Of a stretch of DNA of 64,000 bases, positions 5,116 to 50,144 are shown one piece after another. Location: the IMG/VR virus record IMGVR_UViG_3300009431_000016; one strand, given 5' to 3'. Position numbers and translations under genes: made by a program. This stretch comes from a virus. Position 1 is the stretch's first letter. Each line of letters starts with the position of its first letter. The notes below the pieces were generated by a model. The model saw only the letters and a program-made list of their open reading frames with translations. It ran no database searches and was not told the origin of the DNA.

Positions 5116-7413
5116 ATGACACGCAAACTCGTCGAGATCATCGCCGCCTTTCGGTGGGAGAAGATCCGATTCGACAAAGACGTACAAGAAGACGAGGAGT
5201 CTACTGCCCTCCTGGAGTGCGACCTTCAGCAAGACGGTCTATTCGACCAGAATGTCATCGTGAAGGTAATGTGCATGCCGGACGATTTTGCCGTAGGCCT
5301 GAATTACCGGTTCTACGGCAGCTGGCACACACACGAGAAGTACGGCAAACAGTTCCACGCCAAAACATTCGTCATTGCCCAACCACACGGCGAGGCCGGG
5401 ATCGTCCGATATCTAATCCGGGCCCCACACATCGGCCAGGTGGCCGCCAGGAAGCTATACCAGCAATTCCAAGGCGACGCGGTCCGGATCGCACGAGAAC
5501 AGCCTGACGTTGCCGCCGTGGCTGTAGGCGGCTCATTCAACCTGGAGAGGGCTCAAATTGCCTCTTCTTATTTTGAGCAGGAAAAGGCCACAGAGGAAAC
5601 AACAATCGACATGATTGAGCTCCTGGGCGGCCGCGGGTTTCCGAAAGATCTAGGGCGGCGACTCGTTGCTGAATGGGGGAATCGGGCTCCTGAGCTGATT
5701 CGCCGGAATCCATATCTCTTGATGAAATTCCGATCATGCGGATTTCTACGCACTCACCAAATGTACCTAGACCTTGGCGGCGATCCCGCGAGACTGAAAT
5801 GCCAAACGCTCTGTGGGTGGTATGCGGCCGCCAGAGACACGACAGGGCACACGTGGCACACATCCAGGACGATTGAGGCGGGCATGCGAGAAATGATCGC
5901 AGGGACGCACGTGCGGCCCCTGGACGCGGTTCTGCTGGGCATTCGGTCTGGGCTGCTCAGCAAGTGGCGGGATCGGAATGGCAAGCTGTGGCTGGCGGAG
6001 GGCGGTAAGGCCAGGAAGGAAGAGATTGTCGCCGCGCGCGTCAGGCAGTGGATTAGTGACGATGCCGAGTGGCCGGACGATTATAAACTTAATGTCAGCG
6101 ATCATCAGGGCGAAAAGCTTTTGGAGGCACTGGAATCGCCCATCTCGATCCTTTCGGGCGGCCCGGGAACCGGGAAGACCTACTCCGCCGCCAGGATGAT
6201 CGCCGCCGCCATACAGAGCGGCCGTGGTCAGGCCTGTGCATGTGCGCCAACCGGCAAGGCCGCGGTTCGGCTGACCGAGCTCCTGGACGGCTACGAAATC
6301 CCCCTGAAGGCCAAGACGATCCATTCGACCCTCCGGGTGGCCTCGCATAGCGAAGGCGCCGGCTGGGCATTCGAACATCATGACGAAAATCCGCTACCGT
6401 ACAAATGGGTCTTCGTGGACGAGGCGTCGATGCTCGACACGAATCTGGCGTCGTCCCTCTTTCAGGCCTGCCCCACCGGCTCGCACATCATGCTGATCGG
6501 GGACACCGGTCAGCTCCCGCCCGTAGGACACGGGGCACCGCTGCGCGACCTGACCGCTGCCGGCGTCCCCCATGGAACGCTCACGGAGATCCGCCGCAAC
6601 TCTGGTCGGATTGTGAGGGCGTGCCATCAGATCCTGGTCGGCGAGCAGTTCTCTATAAGTCAGTCGTTTAATCCTGATCGGGGCGAAAACCTCGCTTTAC
6701 TGGCCTCCAGCGATCCGAGCCGGTCTCACAAGAAGATCGTCGAGACAATAAGCAAAATTGGCTCACGCGGTATAGCGGACCCCGTGTGGGGCGTCCAAGT
6801 GATCTGTGCTGTCAACGCCAAATCGCAGCTCAGCCGTGAGGTCCTGAATAAACAGCTCCAGAGCGAATTAAATCCTACCGGCCGGAAGGTCCCCGGCAAT
6901 CCGTTTCGCCAAGGCGACAAGATCGTCTGCTTGAAGAATGGCCTGTATCCAGTAGTGCCAGAGGCGCCGTCCGGCTATAATACAGACCGGGTTGACGGAA
7001 AGGTTTCGGTCGCCAACGGCGAGCAAGGATTGGTCAAAGTCGTTGAGCTGCGCAGAACGATCGTTCAGCTGTCCGCACCAGACCGGCTGATTATTGTCCC
7101 ACGAGGCACCGAGAGTCAGGGCGACGGAGATAATTCGGATAAGTCCGGTGACTCTGGGTGTCAGTGGGACCTCGCATACGCCATCAGCTGTCACAAGTCA
7201 CAGGGCAGTGAGTGGCCCGTTGTTATCGTGGTGCTCGACGAGTATCCGGGCTCCAAGATGGTTTGCAGTCGAGAATGGCTGTATACCGCAGTCAGCAGAG
7301 CAAAGGGAGCGTGTTTCTTAGTCGGCCGTCTCTCGACCGCCTACGACATGATCGATCGGCAGGCGATCTATCATCGCAAGACGTTTCTCAAAGAGCTTAT
7401 CTCCAATGACTAA
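5116..7413 (+). CDS. RecD-like SF1 DNA helicase
   Basis: Walker A GGPGTGKT, Walker B VFVDEASML, motif III LIGDTGQLPPVG, C-terminal YAISCHKSQGSEWPVVIVVL (RecD/TraA family motifs). Confidence 0.85.
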   Translation: MTRKLVEIIAAFRWEKIRFDKDVQEDEESTALLECDLQQDGLFDQNVIVKVMCMPDDFAVGLNYRFYGSWHTHEKYGKQFHAKTFVIAQPHGEAGIVRYLIRAPHIGQVAARKLYQQFQGDAVRIAREQPDVAAVAVGGSFNLERAQIASSYFEQEKATEETTIDMIELLGGRGFPKDLGRRLVAEWGNRAPELIRRNPYLLMKFRSCGFLRTHQMYLDLGGDPARLKCQTLCGWYAAARDTTGHTWHTSRTIEAGMREMIAGTHVRPLDAVLLGIRSGLLSKWRDRNGKLWLAEGGKARKEEIVAARVRQWISDDAEWPDDYKLNVSDHQGEKLLEALESPISILSGGPGTGKTYSAARMIAAAIQSGRGQACACAPTGKAAVRLTELLDGYEIPLKAKTIHSTLRVASHSEGAGWAFEHHDENPLPYKWVFVDEASMLDTNLASSLFQACPTGSHIMLIGDTGQLPPVGHGAPLRDLTAAGVPHGTLTEIRRNSGRIVRACHQILVGEQFSISQSFNPDRGENLALLASSDPSRSHKKIVETISKIGSRGIADPVWGVQVICAVNAKSQLSREVLNKQLQSELNPTGRKVPGNPFRQGDKIVCLKNGLYPVVPEAPSGYNTDRVDGKVSVANGEQGLVKVVELRRTIVQLSAPDRLIIVPRGTESQGDGDNSDKSGDSGCQWDLAYAISCHKSQGSEWPVVIVVLDEYPGSKMVCSREWLYTAVSRAKGACFLVGRLSTAYDMIDRQAIYHRKTFLKELISND

Positions 7414-7771
7414 GCGAACCAAACACGTAAAGACGGAACCAGAAGTCTGCCAAATGGCAGGAGACTTCTACTGTTCGAAGGATTCACCTGTCGGCAAACA
7501 GCTGACCGTTGATCACCTGCAGGACCAGCTCGATCGGCTACGTTCTCATGTCGCAGGCCTGAAGACACTCGTATTAGCCTTATCGGCTCGCGTTGACATG
7601 ATGGGCGGAGTTGTTGAGGTTGACCCGCGGAAGATCCGGGCAGACGGTCGGCCGATCGAGCGCGACAAAGACAAAAAACTGGACATCTACACGTCAGGCT
7701 CGATCTTCGCCAGCGCCATGTCGGGCACACACGTCCGCAACCCCGAGTGCACGCCATACTCCAATGACTAA
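7406..7771 (+). CDS. hypothetical protein; its first 15 codons duplicate the start of the downstream nuclease gene
   Basis: 121-aa ORF whose 5' end lies in a 51-bp direct repeat; diverges afterwards. Confidence 0.3.
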   Translation: MTKRTKHVKTEPEVCQMAGDFYCSKDSPVGKQLTVDHLQDQLDRLRSHVAGLKTLVLALSARVDMMGGVVEVDPRKIRADGRPIERDKDKKLDIYTSGSIFASAMSGTHVRNPECTPYSND

Positions 7772-8273
7772 GCGAACCAAACACGTAAAGACGGAACCAG
7801 AAGTCTGCCCGTTTGTCATCCAAGTCGACCAGCGGGAGAAGGCGCCATATCGCTTTGAGGGCATCGAAAAAGACGATCAGGAGATCGTCGTTCCAACCGA
7901 ATCGGTTCACATCAAAACGGGAGACTACACGATACGCGGATTGAGTGACAAGATTGCGATCGAGCGAAAGAGTCTTGTCGACTTATACGGATCAGTCGGT
8001 CGCAATCGAGATAGGTTCTGCGCTGAGCACGAGCGGCTCGCTCAGTTTGAGCGGGCCGCTGTTGTTATTGAGGCGTCGTGGTACACAATCATGCACTGGC
8101 CGCCTGACATGTCAAAGCTGTCTCCGCGGGTGGTGTGGCGTACACACGCAAGTTGGTTCACTCGTTTCGGCGTTCCATGGTTCACGCTAGAGGACCGGCG
8201 CCTCAGCGAGCTGTTTACGTTTCAACTCTTAGATAGGTTTTGGAGACATGACAATGGTGCGAGAGCTGAATAG
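7764..8273 (+). CDS. ERCC4/XPF-Mus81-type nuclease (possible junction resolvase or flap nuclease)
   Basis: signature VDQRE ... GDYTIRG ... IAIERKSLVDLYGS matching the ERCC4 VDxRE / GDY / ERKx3DLxxS motifs. Confidence 0.55.
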   Translation: MTKRTKHVKTEPEVCPFVIQVDQREKAPYRFEGIEKDDQEIVVPTESVHIKTGDYTIRGLSDKIAIERKSLVDLYGSVGRNRDRFCAEHERLAQFERAAVVIEASWYTIMHWPPDMSKLSPRVVWRTHASWFTRFGVPWFTLEDRRLSELFTFQLLDRFWRHDNGARAE

Positions 8274-33431: not shown

Positions 33432-33493
33432 GATGACTAGACCAACCTTGGATGTCCCGAGATCACTGGACGCCGAAAAAGAAGGATGACGCA

Positions 33494-33868
33494 ATGCCAA
33501 AACTCATGGCATACTCGACGCGGTTTCGTCGCGGACAAGGCTGGACCGCTTTGTTTCGCGCTCGATTACCGAGCGGTTCGTATATCACACCAGATACGAT
33601 ATCCACCGTTAACTGCAAGGTGCAGTACCAAGACGGAACTGAAACGTACGATACCAACTTGACGGTTGCAAATGTTGTCAAGAGCGACCTTGTTACGGAT
33701 GACGCGAGGTGGACGAAGGATTCTACTGGCTACAATTTCTTGCATGAGGTGCCAGCTTCCGCGTTTGACGCAGCCGGTTACGTGTGCGTCGAGTTTATGT
33801 TTACTCCAGTGGCTGGCCAAACTTTCATTGTGGCGTACAATGGGCCAGTTTTTAGTAAATTAACATGA
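33494..33868 (+). CDS. hypothetical protein
   Basis: ORF in structural region. Confidence 0.25.
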   Translation: MPKLMAYSTRFRRGQGWTALFRARLPSGSYITPDTISTVNCKVQYQDGTETYDTNLTVANVVKSDLVTDDARWTKDSTGYNFLHEVPASAFDAAGYVCVEFMFTPVAGQTFIVAYNGPVFSKLT

Positions 33869-33903: not shown

Positions 33904-34485
33904 ATGACGCTTTTAGACTCAACAGCATGGTCTGCGGCCGAAAAGCAGAACCTCGAAATGAACACGTCCGGCAGCGGCTACAGAAAGATCGCCACCTTTT
34001 CGCCGCCCGCCGACACTGCTTGGTGTGTAGTCGGCTGCGTGTTGGCCGCCGCCGTTGAAAAAACAGACGAAGCGACGCTGATTGCCAACATCGAGTCGCT
34101 CTCGCAAGTAACCTCCGTCCATGACCCGCGAGTGTGGCTTGACGCGCCTGCCAGCATCGAAGACGCCGCGAAGGAATTGAGATTGCACGTCAATGCCAAC
34201 GAATCGGGCAATCAAGGCTTTGGCGGGGATGTGTGGGGATATAGCCGCAAATTCAGTGAGAATATACTGCTGACATCATACCTAGGAAAGGCGATGTTTG
34301 TGCTCGCGCTACGAGTTCCTGCTGACCTCGACGCTGCTGCTATTACCGCCTTGGAGACCGCAATCACTGGAGTAACTGGGATTTTAAGCACCGAGCACCT
34401 CGTTGGTGGATTAGTGCCCGCCAACTCCAGCAGCGTGAGTCTAAGCGTAGAGATCCGATTCCGCATTGATGACATTTCAACGTAA
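33904..34485 (+). CDS. hypothetical virion-associated protein
   Basis: 193-aa ORF. Confidence 0.3.
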   Translation: MTLLDSTAWSAAEKQNLEMNTSGSGYRKIATFSPPADTAWCVVGCVLAAAVEKTDEATLIANIESLSQVTSVHDPRVWLDAPASIEDAAKELRLHVNANESGNQGFGGDVWGYSRKFSENILLTSYLGKAMFVLALRVPADLDAAAITALETAITGVTGILSTEHLVGGLVPANSSSVSLSVEIRFRIDDIST

Positions 34486-34492
34486 CTGAACC

Positions 34493-35905
34493 ATGACGAC
34501 GAAGTATTACCGATCCAACAACTCTGATTGGAACACGGACGCCAACTGGTCAACAACCAGTGGCGGCGGCGCGGATACTACGTTTCCAACGGCCGGCGAT
34601 GACGCAATCTTCGACGACAACAGCGGCAACTGCACTCTGGACTTAGCTGCCGCTTGCGACAAGATCACCATTGGCACAGTCGGGGCTCTCTACACTGGCA
34701 CGCTAGACGCCGCCACTTACGACGTTACCATCGGCACGGGTGGCTTGGACTGCACCTATGGCGGCTCGGCTACGCTCGACTTGGGCAGCGGGACTTGGAC
34801 TTGTAGCGGGGATTGGGACTCTCAGGATTTAGGGACGCTAACACCTGGCACATCGCGCGTCAAACTAACTGGTTTGACAAAAAACGTCCGCACTCACGGC
34901 ACTAACGGCCCGCTGTATGAGTTGGAAATAACAGGATCTTACACACACACAGACTCCTCCAGCTATCTCGCGATCACTAGCGGCCTCTATGTGTCGGGTT
35001 CGTTGATTAACAGCGACACAATCTATGCCACGAATGCCGACGTTCAAAACACTGGATCGATCACCGGCGCGGCCAAGATACAATTGGGGTATTTAACCAA
35101 TTCGTCTAACATCAGCGTTCAGTCTGGCACGCTCTCTGTTCCACTAGACGTACAGTGGGGAAGTACAATCTGCGCGGCGACATACGGGGGTGCTGTGACA
35201 TTTTCGTGCAGTTCGTCTTTGACTCGCACTAGCACATGGGGAGCGGGTACGTACACCTTTGAGGATGTTTTTGCTGTTGATGAAGCACATCCAACGGGGA
35301 CATACGTAATGGACCTGGCCACCAACAATCCGGATATGGCGTTCCAGGGCAACGTGACAATATCAGAGTCAGGCGGCGGAACAGTTACCTGGACCAAAGG
35401 CACGGGCACAATCACGCTCTCGGGCTCGTCGAACCAAACCATTACTACCCTCAACAAGCCCCTCGAAGATATCGTCATCGACAAGACTGCGGGCGACATA
35501 CAGCTTGCTGACGGCCTGACTACTGAATCCTTCACTGGCACATCTACAGGCACGGGCGACTTCGACCCCAACGAACAGACACTCACCATCGGCGGCAACT
35601 GTTCCTGGGCTGCGGCGTTCACGATGGAGGGCAGCGCCGACCATATGAATGGCAGCGACTGGCAGGTGACGGGCAACTTTACTGCGAATGGACAATCGTT
35701 GTCCGCTACTGCTGGCTGGGATTTAGACGTTACAGGAACGGCCGTGGCGTCTGGTACGGGCGATGTTGAATATTGCACAGCAGGCGGAACGGAGATAGAC
35801 GCGAGCGCTGGGCCATGGACGGATAACGGGAATAATACTAACTGGAATTTTGGGGCCGCGGGTGGCCGGATTAATGTAATGGTTGGCGGTGGAATTTTTG
35901 GTTGA
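34493..35905 (+). CDS. Thr/Gly/Ser-rich beta-structure protein (fiber or adhesin-like)
   Basis: 470 aa, about 35% T+G+S; repetitive TGT/GTG motifs typical of beta-helix or fiber proteins. Confidence 0.35.
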   Translation: MTTKYYRSNNSDWNTDANWSTTSGGGADTTFPTAGDDAIFDDNSGNCTLDLAAACDKITIGTVGALYTGTLDAATYDVTIGTGGLDCTYGGSATLDLGSGTWTCSGDWDSQDLGTLTPGTSRVKLTGLTKNVRTHGTNGPLYELEITGSYTHTDSSSYLAITSGLYVSGSLINSDTIYATNADVQNTGSITGAAKIQLGYLTNSSNISVQSGTLSVPLDVQWGSTICAATYGGAVTFSCSSSLTRTSTWGAGTYTFEDVFAVDEAHPTGTYVMDLATNNPDMAFQGNVTISESGGGTVTWTKGTGTITLSGSSNQTITTLNKPLEDIVIDKTAGDIQLADGLTTESFTGTSTGTGDFDPNEQTLTIGGNCSWAAAFTMEGSADHMNGSDWQVTGNFTANGQSLSATAGWDLDVTGTAVASGTGDVEYCTAGGTEIDASAGPWTDNGNNTNWNFGAAGGRINVMVGGGIFG

Positions 35906-35929
35906 CGGAAAGAATAAAGGAACGCAAAA

Positions 35930-37243
35930 ATGGTGCAGCCAACTCCAGATGGCCTGACACTAAACGCCGGTTCGGGCGGAAGTGATCTGTACGGGGACAC
36001 AATCGGCACGCAGTTTGCCGAAGGCGTTCTGCTGTGTTACTCCACAGGCGACGGGTCTGCCAATTTTGTGCAGGACGACACTGGTTTGCCAATAGTACCA
36101 GCTACCGGCGCCACGTTTCAGTTGGCGGCCGGAACCGCAGCCATCGGAAAGCTTGCTGCGAATAGCGGTGTGGATATTGGAGACGTTGATGTTATATCCA
36201 TACCAGCTACTGCGACCGAAGCTGCGGCCTTGCCGTCTGTGTTCATGGTTGTAGCTGGAGACGATGGAACAGACACGCATCCGTTGCAGACAAATGCCGT
36301 GGGCGATCTCAAGGTAACTCTTGACAGTGAGACAGTGGCAGTCACGCAAAGCGGTGCGTGGAACGTCACGAACATCAGCGGCACGGTGAGTCTGCCGACG
36401 GGAGCTGCGACCGAAGCCACCTTAAATACCCTGGACGGAAAAGTAACCGCATGCAATACGGGTGCGGTCGTCATTTCGTCCGGGACCGTCACAACAGTCT
36501 CTGCAGTCACGGCCATCACTAATGCACTTCCTGCTGGCGACAACAACATTGGCAATGTAGATGTCGTTACGCTCCCGGCTGGCAACCTGGGCATGCAAGC
36601 CATGTCTGCGTCTTTATCAACTGTGCCGGCGTCCGATATTACAGACGCCACCTACATTGGGGATATCAAATTTGGCGAAAGCTTACCGGCTGGCACAAGC
36701 GCCATTGGGACCGTTACGGCTGTTGGCGCCGCGGCGGAAGACGCGGCAACCTCCGGGAATCCTGTGCTGTTGGCAGGTCGGTATGACTCAAGTGAGCGTA
36801 CCACTGAAACTGGTGACGTTACGACACTGGCAGCATCCGCCCAGGGCTGGATGATGGTCGGTAATCAGTCGTCTTATCTGTTCGATGGAGCCGTGCGGTG
36901 TGAAGTCAAGCGTGCGTCTGGCGTGGCTGCAACTGGAACCGTCGAGATGATACCGGCAGCCGCCGGCAAAAAAGCCAGGATCTTGGCTCTTACACTCATT
37001 CCGACATCAACAACTGTAACGAATGTTTACGTCGCCTCCACAACAGATACCGATATGCTCGGGAATGCGGCCAACCCGATCCCGCTATCAACTGCAGTCG
37101 CCGGAAATGATATGCCGGGCTTTGTTTTGCCGTACAATCAGGGCGGATGGATGCAATGCAGCACAGCCAATGAGGCCATTAACGTGATACTTTCCGCTGC
37201 GCAAGACGTTATTTGGTCTGCGACTTGGATTGAGGTTAACTGA
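35930..37243 (+). CDS. Ala/Thr/Gly-rich structural protein
   Basis: 437 aa with repetitive AT-rich amino-acid tracts. Confidence 0.35.
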   Translation: MVQPTPDGLTLNAGSGGSDLYGDTIGTQFAEGVLLCYSTGDGSANFVQDDTGLPIVPATGATFQLAAGTAAIGKLAANSGVDIGDVDVISIPATATEAAALPSVFMVVAGDDGTDTHPLQTNAVGDLKVTLDSETVAVTQSGAWNVTNISGTVSLPTGAATEATLNTLDGKVTACNTGAVVISSGTVTTVSAVTAITNALPAGDNNIGNVDVVTLPAGNLGMQAMSASLSTVPASDITDATYIGDIKFGESLPAGTSAIGTVTAVGAAAEDAATSGNPVLLAGRYDSSERTTETGDVTTLAASAQGWMMVGNQSSYLFDGAVRCEVKRASGVAATGTVEMIPAAAGKKARILALTLIPTSTTVTNVYVASTTDTDMLGNAANPIPLSTAVAGNDMPGFVLPYNQGGWMQCSTANEAINVILSAAQDVIWSATWIEVN

Positions 37244-37244
37244 C

Positions 37245-37403
37245 ATGCCGGCTGGATCTTGGCTGTTGAATCTCTTGTTTGGAGGCACTATTGCCGGGAC
37301 AGGCATCGCCGCCGATACGTCGGAAGATGGCGATTCATTTCTTGCTGGAGCGGATGGAGCTGATAGCTTTCTTGCTGGAGCGGATGAAGCTGATAGCTAT
37401 TGA
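37245..37403 (+). CDS. small ORF (52 aa) with hydrophobic N-terminus and duplicated SFLAGADxAD
   Basis: below the ORF-track threshold; contains a 30-bp tandem repeat; fills the gap before the giant gene. Confidence 0.2.
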   Translation: MPAGSWLLNLLFGGTIAGTGIAADTSEDGDSFLAGADGADSFLAGADEADSY

Positions 37404-37415
37404 TGATTGGAGAAA

Positions 37416-40400
37416 ATGATGGACGATTTCCCGCCACGCAATGTTGGTGTCAGCGAACGCGTTATCAATTTAGCTGACCTTAATAAGTACCCTGCTACAG
37501 TTGTCAACGAGCAGACCAAGGATCCAGCGCACGGGGTCGACGGCGCCCCGCCGAATTTCGCTAGACCAATGGTTCCGCACATCCATACGGTGCAGGGTCG
37601 CGTTGGGACTATCTCTCGCGTCTATCGTCCCTCTGACGAAGCCCTCCGTCACTCGTATCACAACGCTCGTTATATGCGCAACGAGTGCGGCATCATGGAA
37701 TGCCTCGAAGGTCGGCAACGCGGGTCGATTTTACTGAAGTGGCATCTTGAGCCAGAAGACGAAAAGTCAACCGACCAGCAAGCCCTGGTACAACAGCTAA
37801 CTGACATCATTGACCGCATCCCGGACTTCACGGAGTATCGCAGAAATCTCCTCGAGGCCCTGTGGTTTGGAAAATATGCAACCGCACATAATTGGGGCTG
37901 GGACTGGGTGAAGGGCCGCCGGCGGAAAGTCATTAAGACGTGGGAACCGCGACATGGCGATAAGATCGTTTTCCGTTACGACGATGGCCGTCACAATTAC
38001 GACCCGCGTCAGATCGGCATCCGGATTGGTGCCGATTATCAATGGGACGTGCACCACAAAAACTTTCTCGGTGAACCGCACAAAAAGGTCGAGGCTACCG
38101 ACCAAGGTCTTGCGTATTTCCTCAATCAGTGGGAGCGAGACTTCCTCATTGCCATACATAAACACATCATAGAAGACGGTGCCTATGAAGACCCGGAACA
38201 GGCTGGTAGCATTCATGGCATCGGCATCAGGTCGCGCATTTATTGGACGTGGTATCAAATGTCTGAGTGCACGGCATGGCTGATGGAATATCTCGAACGC
38301 ACAAGTTTTGGCGTTGAGCTGTGGCCGTACAAAGCTGGCAACCCGACCAGCGAACAGAAGACGCGCGAAGCCGCGCAAAAGCGAATCGGCGGCGGCCGGT
38401 CGATCGTCTTGGTGCCCATTCAGGAAGGTGAGGATCCGGCGTTGTGGCAAGTTCAGCACTTGGAACCTGGTCTGGCTGGTGCGGATGCCGTGAAAGACGT
38501 CATACAATCGTTCTTCCTGCAAAGAATCAAGCGATACATACTCGGGCAAACCCTCACGAGCGAAGCAGAGGCTACTGGGCTCGGCTCTGGTGTTGCGGAC
38601 GCTCACCTCGCGACTTACATGGATATCGTGCGATACGACGCCCGTAAACTCGAAGAAACCCTCACGACGGACCTGGTACGACCTTTGCAGCTGCAAAACT
38701 TCCCAGCATCGCACAGTATTCGGATCAAGTTCAAAATCGACACGGAAGCTGACAACGCGTCCGAAATGCTCGAAGCTTACGAGCGAGCGTGGGCGATGGG
38801 GTTGCGGATCAAGGCTGATGACGTGGCGAGTATGATTGGCGCCGCGAAGCCCGATACCGACGACGAGACACTTCGTAACCCGCGGCTCGAACAGGCCGAA
38901 CAACAGCAGGCAATGCTGGAACAGCAGCAAGCGATGGGTCTGGGGGCCGGTCCGGGGCAACCGGGGCAACCAGGACAACCCGGCCAGCCAAACGGCTTGC
39001 CCACGCAGGTCCCCGGCTGGACTCCACCCAGCAGTGACAATGAAGACGTGGAAGAATTTGATGATCCAGAAGGCCCGGATGGAGGAAAGAATGTCAATCT
39101 GATCCCTGAGTTTCGTCCTGGCGGGCCGTTTGATGATGAGGAAGAGCGGCACGCCAAACAGTGGGACGAGAGTAAACACCCGCGTGCTGCAGACGGGAAA
39201 TTCGGACACGGCGAAGGCGCCATTGCTCCCGGTGTAGCAGAAAAGTTGGCTCTCGCAGAGGCAAATGAGGAGGGCGTGCAGTACGCCCAGCTTGGCTTCA
39301 ACTTCAAAGAGGAAGACCATCCACGCGACGCTTCCGGGAAATTCACTGAAGGTGCCGGAGAGAAGAAAAAGCCCGCGGCCGCCGAAGCCGACAAGCCCTT
39401 CGAACTGAAGAATAAAGCCCCCTGGAAGAAAGCCGAATTTACGCCAGAGAAAAAGAAACAGGGGCAGCTCCTGGCCGGGTTGGACCTGTCGCCTGGACAG
39501 ACTGATTTTCTGGAGGAACGGCCCGAGTTGGCCGCGGAGACGCATCCAAACCCCAAGCCTGAGCTTGCGGCAGAGACACACCCAGAGAGCAGCGGGGACG
39601 CGTCAGCTAAAGACTGGGCTGACAAGATCATGCCGGCGGGCAAGTTCATTGACGAAGATGGTAACGAGCGAGGCGGAGACTGGTTTTGGGACGTGGTTGG
39701 CGAGATGTCCGACGAACAGCTCCAGGAAGCCCTAGAGCACGTTCGCGAGAACGGTACGCCACAACAGCAGAGGTGGCTTGTTCCGCCAATCAAGAGTGAG
39801 CTCGGCAAGCGAGCCAAGGGTGAGCCAAAGGAACCGCCGGCCGCCGCCGCGAAGCAAGCAAAAGCCGTGAAGGAACCGTGGGAGATGACTGGATATGAGT
39901 ATGCAACTCAGCATTCTGGGAGAATGAGGGAGTTGCGGGAAGCAAAACCGAGACCGATCGATAAATTATACGGAAAGAATGGCCCCACGCCCGAACAGGC
40001 AGCCGAACACAAGCAATTGATGAAAAGATGGAATCGTGCTTATCGTGCTGCATCTAAGGCGCATAAGGCATACCTGGAAGATCAAGGGAAACATCAGCGA
40101 CTTGTTAAACAGGCCATCGACGACGGCAAACCTGTCCCGGCTAAGGTTCTCGAAGGCTACCCAAGCCTCGCTTCTGATAAGGAACGAGAACGCCATACCA
40201 TGCAAAACGACCAGTCTCTCGGCGCACTCTTCCGCGAGTGCTATCGCAATATGTCCTCTCCTGGCCAGCAGTCAATCATGGGAAAGGGCGGAACCGGAAG
40301 CCGATCAGCCAAGACTCAACAGGGACTGAAGTGGATCACGATCGGAGGTTCTCCGGGCGAAGGCGGCGAGCACGAGGGCGGCACACCGGTCAAAATAGAC

Positions 40401-42887
40401 GAGAAGGGCCGAATACATGGCGGGTCCGAGGCATTGACCGGAGAGACGTTGGGGAAGATTGACAAGGACAAGGTTGGCGACAAGGGTGGCGGGAAGGCTG
40501 GCGGCGGGAAGCCAGAGAAGGTGTCGGAGGGTGGCGGCCCTGCAATGAAAGACATAGCTCCTGGGCACGAAAAGAAGATCCAAGATGCCTTGGCCGCCAT
40601 CGCTGAGCATGACCCGCAATTACTGGCCGGCCTCAAGCAGATTCAGGGCGGTACGCTGCCTCCAGGATTGAAGGCCAATGCGGTCGCAAGTACATCGTCT
40701 GGTACGATTTGGCTGCCTGACGGAAAAGCACCAGAAGAGCATTCAACTCTGGTTCACGAGCTAACGCATTTAAGGCAAGCAGCGGAAGGCAAAATTCCAG
40801 AAGGCGGTCGAGATGTAATGGAGCCAGACGCTTACAATCAACTCGAAATGGAGGCACGCCGCGCAGCCGCAAAGTACCAAGAACACGTTGATGAGAAACG
40901 GATCATGGACTATCTGAGTAAGTCTCAGGGAAAAGTCGGCCTGCGCGACCTTCGTACCGCCCTGGGCCATCCAAAGGTCGATCCTCAGGACCCGCTGTCA
41001 AACCAGATTCATAAAGCACTGGCCGGACTGCGGGACGCCGGTCGGGTTCAGGCTCACGAACCGGAACGCGGGGAGCCTAGCTTTTCGGCGAAGCCGGCTC
41101 AGCGGGCGGCCGCGGAAGGCAGTGAGGAGTCGGCTCCCTCCGCTTCTCCGCCATCGACTCCCACTGAGGCCTCCGTGAAAGCCCAGCCAACCCTAAAGGA
41201 ACCCACAGCCGTATCGATACAGGGACACGATATGGACGTAGGCCAGTCCCGGGGAATGTGGTTTTTCCGGAGGTCATCTGCAGCTGGTTGGGTTGGGGCC
41301 AGTCCTGGCCTGTCTGCAGCCATTGAGCAACAGCTCGGAGGCGGACAGGAAGAGCCTACAGAAACCCCTAAGGAGCGCGGTCGCGCGTCAGCAAAACAGT
41401 CACTAGACGAGGCTGTAGCCAGTGCTGTGGGTGACTCGCCGGAAGATCAGGCCGGATTCAGGACCGTCGTCGATGAGGTATGGAAACGGCGAAACAGAGA
41501 GGCGGCGGCCGAAAATAGCTCACTCAGGAACTTGCTTGGCAATTTCGGATACGATGGCGCCAGACAGGGAGCACTAATACGGACCATACAAAAGACAGAG
41601 GACCCAGACCAGCTGACAAAAGGCAAGTCTGGGCTGAGGAAGCAGTGGGATCAAATCGTGGAATACGCGATTGCACACCACCCAGATCTCTTGGAATGGG
41701 GTGGTGGCGAGTTTATCGGGAAAGACGATGCCGAATACGCACTATTCAACCGCCTAAAAAAGGGGCTGGTGAAGGCCCCGCCGCGACATGACCCGGAAGT
41801 AATCCAGGAGGCCCTGGACTACACGGAGACGGCGTCCGGCGGCGAGTTCGGAGAAGGTGAGGGCGATCTAAGTGGCCCGTGGGATGAATCACTGGCCGCA
41901 CAGTCTGAGTCGTTTTCGGCTGGGATGTGGGAGCGAGCTGTAATTTACGCGAGGCGAGGCAATGCTGAGCAATATAAACAATTGACGACATTTGTGGAAA
42001 GCGAACACCCGCGAAATGCAGATGGGGAATTTACAGATAAGGCCCGTGGACCTACAATGAAAACAGTGATTCGCAGTGGCAAATCATTTGTCATGGGTGA
42101 CGGATCGCCGCTTCCTACGTACATTCCGCGAATCCCTCCAGCATGGACAAAAGTATCGGTTGCAACCTCGCCGGATGCCCCTCTCTTGGTGACTGGGATT
42201 GATGCGAAAGGGCGAAAACAAAGCATCTATTCTACCTCTCATGCCATGCGGGCTGCTGCAGCGAAATTTGCGAAGATATCAGAATTGGTTGCGAAACGCA
42301 ATGAAGTTATAAATGAAATGCGAGAAGCTACGTCTCGCGGGAATACGGAGGCAGAGGTCGCCCTGCTGATCAACGAAACGGGCTTGCGCCCTGGCTCTGG
42401 GCGGGACACAAAGGCTGAGAAACAGGCATATGGTGCGACAACGCTTCTGGGGCGTCATGTTGTCGTGACCGATAGTGGCGTAAGACTGGTTTTTACAGGC
42501 AAGAAGGGCGTGGCTATTGACGTGGCAGTCACCAATCCTGCTATTTCGTCCATGTTGGCCAAACGCAAGCTGACAGTTGGCGAGCATGGCAGGCTGTTTG
42601 ACACCAATGATCAGAAATTGCGGGCGTATGTGGCCACTCTTGATGGTGGAAAATTCAAGCCCAAAGACTTCCGTACTCTTGTCGGAACGACTCTTGCATC
42701 AGATTCAGTGCGGGAGAGGGTGCCAGCCAAAAATGATAAAGAATACAAGAAGCAAGTGCGTGAAATCGCACAGCACGTAGCGGCAAAGCTGGGCAATACA
42801 CCGACCGTGGCGCTGCAGTCGTATATTGATCCGACGGTTTTTAGTCGATTGCGGCCAATTTCACATGAGGAATCAGGTAATGAATGA
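37416..42887 (+). CDS. giant multidomain virion protein: portal-like N-terminal region, 3x EHPR-x-DGKF motifs, HExxH motif, C-terminal type IB topoisomerase domain
   Basis: 1820-plus aa. QQQAMLEQQQAM-GQPGQPGQPGQP linker at about aa 500. EHPRAADGKF, DHPRDASGKF and EHPRNADGEF motifs. LVHELTHL HExxH. C-terminal LRPGSGRD / GATTLLGRHV / FTGKKG / KDFRT / ALQSYIDP aligns to topoisomerase IB catalytic motifs, with the active-site Tyr in SYIDP. ORF track starts at TTG 37407; ATG 37416 preferred. Confidence 0.7.
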   Translation: MMDDFPPRNVGVSERVINLADLNKYPATVVNEQTKDPAHGVDGAPPNFARPMVPHIHTVQGRVGTISRVYRPSDEALRHSYHNARYMRNECGIMECLEGRQRGSILLKWHLEPEDEKSTDQQALVQQLTDIIDRIPDFTEYRRNLLEALWFGKYATAHNWGWDWVKGRRRKVIKTWEPRHGDKIVFRYDDGRHNYDPRQIGIRIGADYQWDVHHKNFLGEPHKKVEATDQGLAYFLNQWERDFLIAIHKHIIEDGAYEDPEQAGSIHGIGIRSRIYWTWYQMSECTAWLMEYLERTSFGVELWPYKAGNPTSEQKTREAAQKRIGGGRSIVLVPIQEGEDPALWQVQHLEPGLAGADAVKDVIQSFFLQRIKRYILGQTLTSEAEATGLGSGVADAHLATYMDIVRYDARKLEETLTTDLVRPLQLQNFPASHSIRIKFKIDTEADNASEMLEAYERAWAMGLRIKADDVASMIGAAKPDTDDETLRNPRLEQAEQQQAMLEQQQAMGLGAGPGQPGQPGQPGQPNGLPTQVPGWTPPSSDNEDVEEFDDPEGPDGGKNVNLIPEFRPGGPFDDEEERHAKQWDESKHPRAADGKFGHGEGAIAPGVAEKLALAEANEEGVQYAQLGFNFKEEDHPRDASGKFTEGAGEKKKPAAAEADKPFELKNKAPWKKAEFTPEKKKQGQLLAGLDLSPGQTDFLEERPELAAETHPNPKPELAAETHPESSGDASAKDWADKIMPAGKFIDEDGNERGGDWFWDVVGEMSDEQLQEALEHVRENGTPQQQRWLVPPIKSELGKRAKGEPKEPPAAAAKQAKAVKEPWEMTGYEYATQHSGRMRELREAKPRPIDKLYGKNGPTPEQAAEHKQLMKRWNRAYRAASKAHKAYLEDQGKHQRLVKQAIDDGKPVPAKVLEGYPSLASDKERERHTMQNDQSLGALFRECYRNMSSPGQQSIMGKGGTGSRSAKTQQGLKWITIGGSPGEGGEHEGGTPVKIDEKGRIHGGSEALTGETLGKIDKDKVGDKGGGKAGGGKPEKVSEGGGPAMKDIAPGHEKKIQDALAAIAEHDPQLLAGLKQIQGGTLPPGLKANAVASTSSGTIWLPDGKAPEEHSTLVHELTHLRQAAEGKIPEGGRDVMEPDAYNQLEMEARRAAAKYQEHVDEKRIMDYLSKSQGKVGLRDLRTALGHPKVDPQDPLSNQIHKALAGLRDAGRVQAHEPERGEPSFSAKPAQRAAAEGSEESAPSASPPSTPTEASVKAQPTLKEPTAVSIQGHDMDVGQSRGMWFFRRSSAAGWVGASPGLSAAIEQQLGGGQEEPTETPKERGRASAKQSLDEAVASAVGDSPEDQAGFRTVVDEVWKRRNREAAAENSSLRNLLGNFGYDGARQGALIRTIQKTEDPDQLTKGKSGLRKQWDQIVEYAIAHHPDLLEWGGGEFIGKDDAEYALFNRLKKGLVKAPPRHDPEVIQEALDYTETASGGEFGEGEGDLSGPWDESLAAQSESFSAGMWERAVIYARRGNAEQYKQLTTFVESEHPRNADGEFTDKARGPTMKTVIRSGKSFVMGDGSPLPTYIPRIPPAWTKVSVATSPDAPLLVTGIDAKGRKQSIYSTSHAMRAAAAKFAKISELVAKRNEVINEMREATSRGNTEAEVALLINETGLRPGSGRDTKAEKQAYGATTLLGRHVVVTDSGVRLVFTGKKGVAIDVAVTNPAISSMLAKRKLTVGEHGRLFDTNDQKLRAYVATLDGGKFKPKDFRTLVGTTLASDSVRERVPAKNDKEYKKQVREIAQHVAAKLGNTPTVALQSYIDPTVFSRLRPISHEESGNE

Positions 42888-43086
42888 TCCGCATAATGCT
42901 GGTGCAGACATCTTTTTTGTTGGCAAAGACGAGATTGATTGGCGAGAAGAAGAAGAAACGGAGGACCCAGATGATTTACAGGTTGAAACGCCAGTAGATG
43001 TGACTCTTGTTCTTGGATTTGATCCAACAACGTGTGAGGATGTCGGCTGCGGCGGGAAACCCGAAAGTTTGGCGAACGAGCTGTAA
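42876..43086 (+). CDS. small acidic protein
   Basis: 70-aa ORF (EEEETEDPDD) overlapping the giant-gene stop; ends inside the second copy of the 32-bp repeat. Confidence 0.25.
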
Positions 43087-43104
43087 TTTACGCGAGGCGA
43101 GGCA

Positions 43105-43725
43105 ATGCCGATACCGGATCCGCCGTTTGATCGCCAGCAGATACTGGCGATGGGAATGGAAGACTGGCAGGACGGGTGCGTCAAGTACGCGGTAGATGTT
43201 GATGCATGTTGGGAAGACAACGTGCGGCGCGCCGAAATGCTCGGCCTGATGGCCACGCAACAGCATTACGTCCTAGACCTTGGTGCCGGCTTCGGATTCT
43301 TTGGGGCGGCTACAGGCCTCAAAGATCATGTGGTGTTCTCGCTCGATTGCGATCGGCCAATCATTCGCCGCGCGGCAGAGATCATTGGAGGCCGCCGCAT
43401 CTGGGGCAAAATCGAAGACGCCATCTCTGGCAACCTTTGGCCGGACGCGCCAATCTCGCTTGTCACAATGTGGCAGGTCATCTCAGGCGACGTGTGGAAC
43501 ATTGGCTTACTCACGTCTAGCATTGCGGCAGTCCTGTTGAGGCTCCCGAATGACGGCCGGTTCGTAATCGGTTGGAACGAAACGCCCGCCGACTGTGACC
43601 TGCATCGCAGCACGTCATACGTCATGGGGCAGCTGGCCAAAATCTTTGCGGTGGAGAACCATGAAGGCTTGGCCATGAAGACCGGAACTTACAAAATGTC
43701 CATCATTCGCAGGCAAAGGAATTAG
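43105..43725 (+). CDS. class I SAM-dependent methyltransferase
   Basis: motif I VLDLGAGFGFFG; start codon is embedded in the 32-bp junction repeat. Confidence 0.45.
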   Translation: MPIPDPPFDRQQILAMGMEDWQDGCVKYAVDVDACWEDNVRRAEMLGLMATQQHYVLDLGAGFGFFGAATGLKDHVVFSLDCDRPIIRRAAEIIGGRRIWGKIEDAISGNLWPDAPISLVTMWQVISGDVWNIGLLTSSIAAVLLRLPNDGRFVIGWNETPADCDLHRSTSYVMGQLAKIFAVENHEGLAMKTGTYKMSIIRRQRN

Positions 43726-43727
43726 AT

Positions 43728-44765
43728 ATGTATCCAGCACACAACACGCAAGTGTCTCTCGCGGGAACGATCGCAAATGCCGTTACGCGTCATGCCCCGG
43801 TCGAGATGCGCGGAACGTACATGTTAGATACAACGTTGCACCTTCAGAAGGGAGACCACCCGCGGCCGCGATGGATCGCGGGACTACACCTGTTTGGCGG
43901 CGGCCCAATGTGGGATCACCAGTGCGGTGCGGATTGGTTTTGCTGGGGCGGCGCCGCACTAAAGTGGCGGGGCAGGAAAGGTGGCACGATGGCGTCAGGC
44001 CACACTATCAACTCATTGTTCCAAGGGATCGCCTACCACGGGGCCAAGGCCGCCGAAATCTGTCATCACATTAAGTTTTCAACTGGATGGGGGACATCAC
44101 GGAATACGTGGCGGGACTGTGCATTCGAAAACGCCGATCTGGCGATCGTCGCAGGAGAGAAAAAGGAAGACGGAAACAATGACACATGTCGCATCGAGAA
44201 CTGCCGATTCAATCATCTCGACGCCGCGTTTGAAACTCGTAATTGGCAAAGCTTCGGACATGTCATTTCGGACCCGATCGTGCGCCACACAGCTGCCCTG
44301 GTCCGGGTGAAGTACGGCGGCAAGGTGACCGTCCAGCGGCCAATGATCATGAGTGTTGAGGCCATCTTTGACGTCGAGCGCACGACTGATCAACTGAATC
44401 AGTTCACTCTGGACGGGTTTGGCGTTGACGGTGACGGAGATCCTCCCACACTGATGTGGGCCCATAATCTGCCCGGCTATCCTCCAGTGTTCTTCGTCGC
44501 GAGGGACGGCCACACGACGAAGCCTAACGACGTCAATCCAGTGATCCGTGCGGATAGCGATGTGATTGCCAGTCTGTCAAACATTCGCCGTCTAGGGTGC
44601 TTGTGCGACGGTCCGGCCAGGGCACGCATTCGAATCGAGAATTGCGTGATCGCGGACAATTGCGTGCCCGGCTATCCCGCCGGCCTCGCCAACGGCCAGC
44701 TCTTGTACGACAACGGAGACTGGTCGGGTGAGCTGTCCTACGTTGAGGCCGGCACTCACCTATAA
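43728..44765 (+). CDS. putative right-handed beta-helix protein (pectate-lyase-like fold?)
   Basis: repeated xIENCxF/IENCVI rungs, Gly/Asn-rich turns. Confidence 0.3.
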   Translation: MYPAHNTQVSLAGTIANAVTRHAPVEMRGTYMLDTTLHLQKGDHPRPRWIAGLHLFGGGPMWDHQCGADWFCWGGAALKWRGRKGGTMASGHTINSLFQGIAYHGAKAAEICHHIKFSTGWGTSRNTWRDCAFENADLAIVAGEKKEDGNNDTCRIENCRFNHLDAAFETRNWQSFGHVISDPIVRHTAALVRVKYGGKVTVQRPMIMSVEAIFDVERTTDQLNQFTLDGFGVDGDGDPPTLMWAHNLPGYPPVFFVARDGHTTKPNDVNPVIRADSDVIASLSNIRRLGCLCDGPARARIRIENCVIADNCVPGYPAGLANGQLLYDNGDWSGELSYVEAGTHL

Positions 44766-44964
44766 ACTACGGCCGCCCGCTACAGGTCGATCGTTTCGCC
44801 GCGGTGGCGCACTAACCGTGACATGCCATTCGACACTGAAATCTCGGTGTCAATCTTCGAGATTTCAATGTAAGTGGAAGATTTTCCGGTAGACTGTACC
44901 GGATAGAGGCTGAGGAAACGCCAGGGCTCGGCACCCCTTACTGCGACCCGTTGACCATTAACCC

Positions 44965-44992
44965 TTGACTCGCCCGGTTTCTATGCTAATCT
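44965..44992 (+). promoter_or_regulatory. sigma70-like promoter candidate (TTGACT-N16-TAATCT)
   Basis: seen in the 230-bp noncoding gap after the beta-helix gene; a second TTGACC lies 14 bp upstream. Confidence 0.25.
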
Positions 44993-45079
44993 TGCACATT
45001 GACTGGGCGTTTTTTGTACGGTCTGGCGAGAGGCACCTTTTCACCGACAACCAGCGTGGACAGCGTGGAGGGTGCCCAG

Positions 45080-45313: not shown

Positions 45314-45356
45314 AACGCGATAGCCGCGTCACCCACAACCCGAAAGGCCAAGCGAA

Positions 45357-45413
45357 GGGCCATTTCCTCTAGACCCGCAACCGCGGGTCTAGAGAAAATG
45401 GCCTTTTTTTATT
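45357..45413 (+). terminator. rho-independent terminator
   Basis: about 21-bp GC-rich stem GGGCCATTTCCTCTAGACCCGC / GCGGGTCTAGAGAAAATGGCC (one mismatch) followed by TTTTTTTATT. Confidence 0.7.
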
Positions 45414-45416
45414 GTC

Positions 45417-46883
45417 ATGATAGCAAAAGCAAATCTTGCCGAGCTGGAACAGATCGCTCAGGACACTTTCAGTCCGGCGAAATTCATTCGCGTGCCTGAC
45501 GTGTGTGTCTTCGGGGAACACGAAACGCAAGACAGAAAGGGTAAGCCACAAAAGTACGACAAGGCCGCTCTTGACGCGATTTGCGCACGGTGCAACGAGA
45601 GGATACTCGACACTGGCGACTTCGCCACTCTGGTTGACGGCCACACGCCCTCGCGGGCGGAGCTCCTCCAAGGTGCGAGGATGCCGGTTGTCGTTGGTTT
45701 CGCCGGACCATTCCGGGTCAAGAAGTTCGGTCGCGTAAGGTCCCGCTGGGGGATCTTCACCGACGAGTTTCACTTCAAAGACGATCACGACAGCTTGGTA
45801 AAACGACCTCGTCGGAGCGTAGAGCTGTGGATGTCGGACGACATGGCAAAACGCTTCTTCGACCCTATTGCCTGCCTGGGAGCTGAAACGCCGAGACTTG
45901 ATCTTGGCGTCAGGTTCTGCAGGTTGGTAAGCGGCGAGACGGTTGAGAAGTACACTGCCGTAGCACCGAGTGCGGGTAGTACGTTCGTCCAGGCATTCAA
46001 AGGCTCTGACGAAGAGCAAGACCAATATGAAGGGGACCAGACGATGCTCGCTCCCGACGAAATTCAACAGATCGTGGCAGCCATTAACGAGCTTGATTTC
46101 GTCCAATGGGCGAGACAAAAAATGAGCGAAGAGGAAGCCGCTGCTGAAAAAGACGAGTCGCTCGAAGACGCCGGAGAAGGGATTGGGGGAGGCCCCAGTC
46201 CAACTGGCGTTGAAGCCGCCATGGGCGGCGAAGGCGAAGCCGAGATGACTGGTGAGCCGGAAGGCGTTTTACCGGCTGAAGCAACTGTCGCACCAAAACC
46301 TCCTCTGGTAGCTGCCGTCGCCCCTGCGACTGGCACTCCCGTAGAGGAGGAGGACTACGCCTGCAAACCTAAAAAAGAGGACAAAGTCAAGATGGCCAAA
46401 AAAACCCCCGACACTGACCGCGAAAACTACGCCAAACTCCGAGTTGATCACGATCAGCTCAGTGAGAAATACGCGAAGCTGGTTGTTGACAACCAGGCCA
46501 AGGACGACCGGATTACCGCTCTGGAGAAGGATGCTTCTGATGGCCGGAGATCCGCCATTATCGAGCGGCTCGTGAACACCTACGCTATTGACGGCGAGGC
46601 CGAGAGGGGCCTGTGTCTCTACTCCATGGAGTCCGATGAGCGGAAGGAAACCATGACCGACGAACAATTTAATGCACACGTCTCCACGATCGAGAAGTAC
46701 GCGACGCCTAGTGCAGTTGGCGCTCCGACCCTCCCGGCTGGCGAGCTCCCAGAGGAGTCTGACAAGCAGGAGGCGGAAAAGTACCAGCGAGCTCTTGACT
46801 ATGCTGACGTCCAGCGAAAACAGGGCAAGGACATCACGTGGGCTCAGGCTGAGGCGTGGGTCGAAGCCAACCCGAAAGGCTGA
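45417..46883 (+). CDS. putative scaffolding / prohead-maturation protein (acidic coiled-coil C-terminal half)
   Basis: position immediately upstream of decoration-like and capsid-like genes; Glu/Ala-rich coiled-coil after aa 230. Confidence 0.3.
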   Translation: MIAKANLAELEQIAQDTFSPAKFIRVPDVCVFGEHETQDRKGKPQKYDKAALDAICARCNERILDTGDFATLVDGHTPSRAELLQGARMPVVVGFAGPFRVKKFGRVRSRWGIFTDEFHFKDDHDSLVKRPRRSVELWMSDDMAKRFFDPIACLGAETPRLDLGVRFCRLVSGETVEKYTAVAPSAGSTFVQAFKGSDEEQDQYEGDQTMLAPDEIQQIVAAINELDFVQWARQKMSEEEAAAEKDESLEDAGEGIGGGPSPTGVEAAMGGEGEAEMTGEPEGVLPAEATVAPKPPLVAAVAPATGTPVEEEDYACKPKKEDKVKMAKKTPDTDRENYAKLRVDHDQLSEKYAKLVVDNQAKDDRITALEKDASDGRRSAIIERLVNTYAIDGEAERGLCLYSMESDERKETMTDEQFNAHVSTIEKYATPSAVGAPTLPAGELPEESDKQEAEKYQRALDYADVQRKQGKDITWAQAEAWVEANPKG

Positions 46884-49709: not shown

Positions 49710-50144
49710 ATGTTTTGGCAGCGAAAGAAGAAGAGGTGGATCTTCACGTACTTTGACGGACTCTGCACGAGATCTGTGGATCCAATGGTTGCCTTTCGGA
49801 CACTGCGAGATGACAAAGAGTTCCGTGCAGAAGTGCATCCGCATCTCGTGGACGTTGGCGATGAGGAGGCCGTCCAAGTCACCCTGCGTGCTATACGGCG
49901 CACTTTTGGCGTTACAGCCTATGCAGACGATCTGGCGGGAGGGCTCACGGAACTTGAAACACTGGAACTTCTCGGCGACTTTTATGAATTCATCGATTCC
50001 GTAAAAAAAAACACCAGGCCTTCGCAGACGCCATCTGCCTCTACGGAGCCGATCTTGTCGCCCTTGAACGAGATGAGCCCGAGCGATACGGCGCCTTGCT
50101 CTTGCTCCAGCCAAGAGAAGAGCTTCGAGCAGCCAACAGAATAA
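49710..50144 (+). CDS. hypothetical structural protein
   Basis: 144-aa ORF. Confidence 0.25.
   Translation: MFWQRKKKRWIFTYFDGLCTRSVDPMVAFRTLRDDKEFRAEVHPHLVDVGDEEAVQVTLRAIRRTFGVTAYADDLAGGLTELETLELLGDFYEFIDSVKKNTRPSQTPSASTEPILSPLNEMSPSDTAPCSCSSQEKSFEQPTE

Follow-up and report, generated by a model that had tools for sequence, protein, structure and literature searches.

A perfect 32-bp direct repeat around a topoisomerase IB cassette in a giant phage portal gene: a probable scar of recombination at an overlapping gene junction

The DNA considered here is a 64,000-nucleotide stretch of one strand from a virus (IMG/VR record IMGVR_UViG_3300009431_000016; the window, always meant at its full length), in which a giant portal gene ends in a type IB topoisomerase (TopIB) domain. 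This domain is part of a 1,111-bp cassette (41966..43076, + strand), which combines a linker unit, TopIB, and a small partner open reading frame (ORF) and is bracketed by two copies of a perfect 32-bp direct repeat, R (CGAGCTGTAATTTACGCGAGGCGAGGCAATGC). In the reading that we favor, which we consider probable rather than secure, a relative with TopIB and one without it recently recombined in an illegitimate or unequal manner, and the two copies are the scar left when an overlapping gene junction was duplicated in the process.

R occurs exactly twice in the window, at 41934-41965 and 43077-43108, on the + strand in both instances and with 0 mismatches, and lies far beyond chance expectation, with none of 100 shuffled sequences (0/100) containing a match even at 3 mismatches. 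Among exact direct repeats at most 8 kb apart it is the second longest in the window, the longest in the shuffles being 16 nt, and the only dispersed exact pairs that stand out in this 8-kb scan are R and a 51-mer at 7401/7759. The spacing of the copies is 1143 bp, i.e., 381 codons and hence a multiple of three. Their similarity grows to 38 nt with one mismatch per side (GA[G/A]-R-[T/C]GA) and ends abruptly beyond the repeat edges, which rules out tandem duplication followed by divergence as the origin of R. Copy 1 (41934..41965, +) begins at amino acid 1510 of the giant ORF and is read in its frame 0 as the peptide RAVIYARRGNA. In copy 2 (43077..43108, +) the same bases are read one position over as GAG CTG TAA, ending the 68-aa partner ORF (42880-43086), and additionally furnish GAGGCGAGG, with a Shine-Dalgarno (SD)-like GAGG, and the ATG at 43105 that opens a further ORF, gene B (43105-43725). 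The exact repeat and both of these readings had been put forward in a first-pass annotation made from the sequence alone, and are borne out by the repeat search, translation, and the reading frames. As predicted from these frames, copy 1 today is a peptide spacer within a polyprotein and copy 2 a junction of stop codon, ribosome-binding site (RBS), and start codon. The SD element and ATG are naturally also present in copy 1, where they would open a 7-codon out-of-frame mini-ORF (MLSNINN and a stop, 41962-41985) inside the giant gene. A promoter or terminator role for R was dropped, as nothing was found at R in a stem-loop terminator scan of 41500-43800.

In the protein encoded by the giant gene (37407..42887, +, 1826 codons), a Mu-type portal takes up aa 88-477; further parts are HPRxxDGxF linkers, a region resembling an HExxH metallopeptidase, and the TopIB domain at the C-terminus. 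Pfam searches recover PF06074, PF20573 (weak), and PF01028, with the TopIB domain also matching PF21338, while the HExxH peptidase-like region is DUF6782-like by a weak match; the HPRxxDGxF units lie in low-complexity stretches at about aa 591, 638, and 1534. A terminase homologue is encoded upstream and a Mu gp36-like gene downstream, and the co-occurrence of Portal_Mu, HExxH peptidase-like, and TopIB regions in a single 1826-aa protein of a head-gene neighborhood is what is seen in polyvalent proteins. The first codons of the cassette specify, by motif scan, the third linker unit of the protein (EQYKQLTTFVESEHPRNADGEF, EQY..HPRNADGEF; 41967..42032, +). The TopIB domain that follows (42054..42857, +; PF01028, E 7e-16) could be aligned to the Deinococcus radiodurans TopIB (2F4Q, E 5.5e-18) and a poxvirus TopIB (2H7F); it retains all of the catalytic Arg, Lys, Arg, Asn, and Tyr, along with the LRPGS, GKKGV, DFRT, GNTP, and SYI motifs conserved in the alignment to 2F4Q. 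With this catalytic pentad set in a Topoisom_I core, it is predicted to be an enzymatic type IB topoisomerase. The acidic partner ORF (42880..43086, +, 68 aa; DWR..DPDD..ETP.DV..LGFDP) has an 8-nt overlap with the TopIB stop, and copy 2 supplies its final three codons and TAA, such that the insert between the copies stops within three codons of the partner stop.

The same arrangement recurs elsewhere, which suggests that the cassette is a natural unit. A homologous partner ORF directly follows TopIB in L004, L006, L007, L010, and L013, mostly with a 4-nt ATGA overlap, i.e., in six of seven phage contexts if these five loci and the window are counted, the remaining one, L003, having no partner. 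HPR-type linkers also precede TopIB in P0008, P0036, P0123, and P0113/L006, and an HPRxxxGxF linker is present in 84 of the 245 retrieved TopIB homologues, 81 of the 245 being at least 600 aa long. The partner family has no Pfam or PHROG match. The window's 68-aa member ends about where the 64-aa partner of the closest relative ends (alignment A1, 14 invariant columns); that it might be a truncated gene, in view of the 140-aa homologue in L006, was rejected since homologues of 52-64 aa exist and ORF68 is full length. By these comparisons linker, TopIB, and partner make up one complete cassette, both of whose edges are predicted module edges, the left coinciding with the first residue of the linker and the right with the natural end of the partner ORF, which supports the recombination reading. 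The first-pass annotation had the segment between the copies as exactly TopIB plus one small ORF; it is indeed a discrete module with both, and it holds the linker as well, with the linker start and the partner end as its edges.

More generally, many polyvalent proteins of phages, portal and MuF proteins among them, carry TopIB as cargo at the C-terminus. A single distant TopIB was found among 50,697 cultured phage records, and the literature searched yielded no description of a portal- or MuF-fused TopIB with a small acidic partner, nor any mention of the conserved partner ORF itself. TopIB fused to portal or MuF head proteins and accompanied by this partner looks like a widespread virion-delivered cargo. 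Such a cargo parallels the packaged TopIB of poxviruses.

In composition too, the cassette stands apart from its surroundings, with the lowest GC content and lowest GC content at third codon positions (GC3) in the window. GC3 is 0.48 for the TopIB part and 0.40 for the partner ORF, the lowest among about 40 genes (others 0.53-0.77), as against 0.60 for the rest of the giant gene and 0.69 for gene B, so that an outlier is flanked on both sides by genes of typical composition. The maximum-likelihood GC3 change point in the giant ORF falls at aa 1481-1509, adjoining copy 1 (log-likelihood gain 6.2). This break fits a different origin for the cassette, and the ensemble of a flanking repeat of tens of bp, gene function kept on both sides, and an insert of differing composition is that of a repeat-bracketed mosaic insertion.

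When the cassette and one copy of R are removed in silico, the giant gene ends in ...GMWERAVIYARRGNADTGSAV followed by a stop, 26 nt into gene B; the predicted empty site thereby has a sensible gene end overlapping the B start, as the recombination reading would have it. In P0008, a TopIB protein that shares a WITIGG..GGTPVKID module with the giant protein, the equivalent position before the linker is occupied by RAIYARR, and the resemblance to the R peptide has a pairwise E of 5e-4, or ~0.03 allowing for the 245 proteins inspected. Further, the three mismatches flanking the copies (GAG/GAA, GCT/GCC, GAG/GAT) are without exception at the third codon position of frame 0 (p ~1/256). The codon usage of R in frame 0, at the 20th percentile, says little on coding ancestry because codon bias in the genome is weak. 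The peptide resemblance and the flank pattern suggest that R was probably the stretch of coding sequence with which the giant gene ended (3') and that this stretch overlapped the initiation region of B. The earlier proposal that the repeat is a duplicated gene junction holds for the duplication, with R itself probably no plain intergenic junction.

The second case noted above shows the same pattern with an unrelated repeat. The 51-mer is an overlapping stop/start junction (ATGACTAA) between genes for a RecD2-like helicase (5116-7413) and an ERCC4-type nuclease (7764-8273; PF02732 at aa 21-107). Its first copy (7401..7451, +) comprises the end and stop of the helicase gene and, overlapping these, the ATG and first 15 codons of an inserted orphan ORF (7406..7771, +, 121 aa); in its second copy (7759..7809, +) the inserted ORF stops and the nuclease gene starts. 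The copies are 358 bp apart and enclose an insert at 7452-7758, and the inserted ORF, without Pfam or PHROG matches, owes its first 15 codons to the downstream gene and its last 3 codons and stop to the upstream gene, its likely own ATG lying 2 nt past copy 1. An empty site was sought via homologues of the nuclease, which proved to be only 30-38% identical and not syntenic. As with R, an overlapping junction is perfectly duplicated around an in-frame insert, the sequence and length of the two repeats being unrelated. This independent junction duplication supports the recombination reading and points to a general, sequence-independent process coupled to selection, as opposed to a site-specific system.

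The relatives speak to what the event did and did not bring about. A megablast of 37400-45000 against the 50,697 phage records gave no match, i.e., no close cultured phage is among them. One relative, L010, shows ~9 kb of synteny, with 58% identity in the terminase, 62-69% in the portal, 60% in TopIB, and 60% in the partner ORF, its portal-TopIB protein being just 1011 aa long; L013 resembles it in arrangement (portal 55% identical) and likewise carries TopIB. The closest portal (67%) is found in L014 (CALALR010000029.1, 3794-7636), a contig of a metagenome-assembled genome (MAG) of Planctomycetaceae, which codes for a 1280-aa polyvalent protein that has no TopIB and bears a different cargo, including an HEWGH peptidase-like region. 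The binning of this contig suggests that the phage probably has a host in the Planctomycetes lineage. With TopIB present in L010 and L013 and absent from L014, it is, as judged from these loci, a cargo typical of the lineage yet variable. When 1.8 billion representatives were searched exhaustively with aa 1150-1826, a search in which TopIB matches filled the best 150 and would hide homologues of the preceding 360 aa, the best three TopIB matches (P0122, P0124, and P0123) were the C-termini of homologous portals in syntenic relatives. In a neighbor-joining tree without bootstrap, the window's TopIB groups with P0122 and P0124 and pairs with that of L010. Since the nearest TopIBs already sit on homologous portals, the portal-TopIB architecture predates the R event on this evidence, and we interpret the event as an exchange or re-acquisition within the lineage; the notion that it created the in-frame fusion falls away. 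None of the TopIB-bearing relatives has bracketing repeats, diverged or otherwise, which makes R specific to this phage, and the perfect identity of its copies indicates that the duplication is recent.

Two further observations concern the remodeling of this region. Between the homologue of a 125-aa gene (33479-33865) and the portal, 33904-37243 holds three ORFs (193, 470, and 437 aa, without Pfam matches), which have no counterpart in L014, and the corresponding genes are adjacent in L010, indicating another insertion in the window. Upstream of the cassette, 41321-41933 (aa ~1310-1509) compares with L010 as follows: a GMWF module abuts TopIB in L010, and ~240 aa (giant-protein tail, R peptide, and linker) intervene here. 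These extra residues suggest that the polyprotein was remodeled more than once.

We infer the following course of events. The starting state would have been a version of the phage without TopIB, whose giant gene ended in R with its last 26 nt overlapping the RBS and ATG of gene B. A related phage, the putative donor, would have carried the usual linker-TopIB-partner cassette of the lineage, and recombination would have joined this cassette after R; the return into the genome without TopIB would then have taken place 32 bp upstream of the point of exit. The right crossover would be illegitimate or unequal, and the left one possibly homologous or dependent on short homology. Given the overlapping stop/start junction, only recombinants that duplicated the overlap would keep the frame into TopIB, the stop of the partner ORF, and the start signals of B together, leaving both genes working, and this would be why the scar survives. 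Were the two copies to recombine with each other, the cassette would be deleted precisely and in frame, restoring A-R-B (giant gene, repeat, gene B), with the predicted empty site GGGATGTGGGAG-R-CGATACCGGATCC and the predicted excised-circle junction TTTGGCGAA-R-TGAGCAATAT. Going further, in a reading that we regard as distinctly unlikely, the two junction duplications (of 32 and 51 bp) might be the working substrate of short-homology cassette capture and excision, as might the dispersed repeats of 25-37 nt described below. The AAA_24 protein, RecD2-like helicase, and ERCC4 nuclease of the phage would drive this process, and virion cargo such as the TopIB-partner cassette would be gained and lost reversibly within a population, in place of a scar left once. 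The AAA_24 family includes Sak4-type recombinases.

Several points weigh against recombination as set out here. No single-copy empty-site genome or contig and no donor surfaced in phage records, viral and metagenome contigs, or 5.8 billion proteins: exact R was not found in viral contigs, and in metagenome contigs neither a degenerate pattern for the R peptide nor the giant-protein tail as query gave a match, the latter collection evidently lacking even the source contig. The collections searched contain no close relative, and L014, a distant one (portal 67% identical), lacks TopIB but has diverged too far to show R. Further, the portal relatives closest to the window are also those with the closest TopIBs, in agreement with the unbootstrapped tree, as would fit vertical inheritance in place. 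The coding ancestry of R is suggestive only, drawing on one homologue and the flank pattern, and TopIB and partner rank low in GC3 in L010 as well (0.54 and 0.49), so the composition break may be old. Finally, gain is the proposed direction of the event, and loss in the relatives may account for the pattern instead. The first-pass view of a TopIB module inserted by recombination therefore keeps its module edges, compositional outlier, TopIB-less relative, and footprint, insertion as opposed to loss being putative.

Some of these same points speak for a rival in which TopIB is native in place (A-R-X, with X the cassette) and only the right copy is new, a 32-38-nt coding patch having been copied ~1.1 kb downstream by template switching in replication or repair, or upon the arrival of B, and kept because it chanced to offer a stop, an RBS, and an ATG. 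Beyond the placement of the closest TopIBs in the closest portal relatives, with which the unbootstrapped tree agrees, this rival would account for the resemblance of the R peptide to the RAIYARR preceding linker and TopIB in P0008, for flanking mismatches that respect codon position 3 of frame 0 at both copies, and for an orphan gene B that lacks a counterpart in the head-gene order after the portal-TopIB gene of L006. Nevertheless, the compositional outlier is the cassette and not B with its GC3 of 0.69; the GC3 change point at copy 1 is left unexplained; that a random coding patch delivered a stop, SD element, and ATG in correct spacing would have to be put down to coincidence; and the 51-bp case, whose repeat is plainly a native stop/start junction, finds no explanation. 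We accordingly regard this rival as unlikely, while giving it serious weight.

Very improbable, in our estimate, is that R is a working recombination site, i.e., an attachment (att) core or the boundary of a cassette that a dedicated enzyme, perhaps TopIB itself, inserts and excises in a programmed way, such that the cargo is phase-variable. The perfect identity of the copies, the precise in-frame deletion that recombination between them would produce, and the presence in the cassette of a TopIB with an intact predicted active site, in a family that shares its chemistry with tyrosine recombinases, are all in keeping with such a site. Against it, the second bracketed insertion has an unrelated 51-bp repeat of another length and no enzyme, R appears nowhere else in the window nor in any relative, and the TopIB cassettes of relatives are without flanking repeats. 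Moreover, no (C/T)CCTT cleavage motif of the poxvirus TopIB type lies within 60 bp of either copy, and neither the repeat search nor the terminator scan of 41500-43800 reported an inverted repeat or hairpin overlapping R.

An assembly artefact, in which a de Bruijn-graph path looped through 32 bp common to two molecules or strains, is scarcely credible. All contigs concerned are short-read metagenome assemblies, which tells for an artefact, and the two additional contigs start just 156 and 613 bp upstream of copy 1. These two Joint Genome Institute (JGI) contigs (L001 and L002) come from other samples (3300009320 and 3300009314), match the window at 99.97-99.99% identity, and likewise have R twice; they share one synonymous single-nucleotide polymorphism (SNP) relative to the window at 41984, 19 nt past copy 1, from which it follows that the R-cassette-R arrangement, known here from assembled contigs, exists in at least two haplotypes. 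An identical arrangement in three contigs from different samples, the lack of contig breaks at either copy, and reading frames unbroken across all four junctions argue against looping. The usual final k-mers of metagenome assemblers are, besides, longer than 32 bp. The SNP also falls on the last base of the TGA stop (41982-41984) of the mini-ORF in copy 1, where G>A gives TAA, still a stop, while being synonymous in the giant ORF. Two candidates were dropped: site-specific insertion catalyzed by TopIB, for want of a cleavage motif and of an enzyme in the second case, and transposon or insertion-sequence (IS) insertion, as the segment encodes only linker, TopIB, and partner ORF and no inverted repeats were reported at its ends.

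Gene B (43105..43725, +, 206 aa), whose GC3 of 0.69 is typical of the genome, is an orphan. It has no Pfam match at E<=10 and no PHROG match, and retrieved only itself both in viral contigs and among the 5.8 billion proteins, in the latter on 4 contigs; a single-sequence AlphaFold model was unusable (pLDDT 35). The first-pass assignment of a methyltransferase found no confirmation, a VLDLGAGFG motif being the sole hint of an S-adenosylmethionine (SAM)-binding fold.

The window has other repeats of interest. A short perfect repeat occurs inside coding regions in three copies, viz., 13345-13374 (+), 14819-14860 (inverted), and 49946-49982 (+); 14824-14860 and 49946-49982 are 100% complementary over 37 nt, and 13345-13369 is identical to 49958-49982 over 25 nt. 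A 1.44-kb segment lies between the first two copies (13345 and 14819), which are inverted repeats of 30 nt. TLELLGDF is encoded by two copies, and the inverted one reads KVAEKFQCFKFR; over 37 nt, the two mRNAs of the + strand would be complements of each other. An array with a 120-bp period and GC-rich units of 27-33 nt occupies 50400-50600, the contig L001 ending just before it at 50371; three diverged 82-nt units lie at 58456-59137 inside a 1196-aa ORF (56523-60113). Between ORFs 43728-44765 and 45417-46883, an inverted repeat (45355-45406; 24-nt arms, 92% complementary, 4-nt loop) looks like a strong hairpin or terminator.

If the proposed course of events is correct, the R-bracketed cassette would be a clean, datable example of cargo swapping in giant phage polyproteins, with both joints preserved to the base. 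Linker, enzyme, and partner gene would have moved together as one whole functional unit, and an overlapping stop/start would have forced the duplication. With a precise deletion product predicted, it offers a useful case for the study of how uncultivated phages, probably of Planctomycetes, exchange modules. The model of phage mosaicism by illegitimate recombination plus selection is attributed to Hendrix, Hatfull, and colleagues.

The giant portal protein resembles the polyvalent proteins described by Iyer et al., 2017 (PMC5512222), which are giant, multidomain, portal- or MuF-anchored proteins with effector domains and a zincin-like peptidase and are presumably packaged and delivered; TopIB cargo is not discussed there, topoisomerase featuring only in the reference list. 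The kind of junction seen at R is one already described in other phages. In the mycobacteriophage LRRHood, 29-bp direct repeats flank a 1.35-kb insertion, the repeat occurring once in Cali and in further C1 phages, and the insert's acquisition by recombination with an unknown partner, or its loss in relatives, was proposed (PMC3029335; Pope et al., 2011). Both cases present an extra segment of ~1.1-1.4 kb and a perfect repeat of ~30 bp, found where the upstream gene has its 3' end and shortly ahead of the gene that follows. The present case departs from LRRHood in that no empty site was found, in that the repeat is read in frame and fuses a domain to a giant portal polyprotein, and in that the insert is a cargo cassette rather than an immunity gene. 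Gene 68 of Island3 is another insertion, next to which ~50 bp from the upstream gene's 3' end are duplicated (PMC3029335). As there, the inserted ORF in the 51-bp case closes with C-terminal codons duplicated from the upstream gene, with a comparable stop donation at 43084-43086; unlike there, where the copies are closely related, the copies here are exact, and the 51-bp junction additionally donates a start along with 15 N-terminal codons. A further comparison is with the target-site duplications of transposons, where an insert is likewise flanked by directly repeated target sequence; the present cases have neither terminal inverted repeats nor a transposase, and their repeats differ from each other in length (32 and 51 bp) and are far longer than is typical. 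A more general parallel is the model of phage mosaicism, wherein illegitimate recombination and selection produce novel joints at gene and module boundaries with little or no homology (PMC3029335). The two have in common that only recombinants with functional junctions survive; unlike most mosaic joints, which show no duplication, the overlapping stop/start here appears to have forced a duplication of 32 bp, and elsewhere in the window one of 51 bp.

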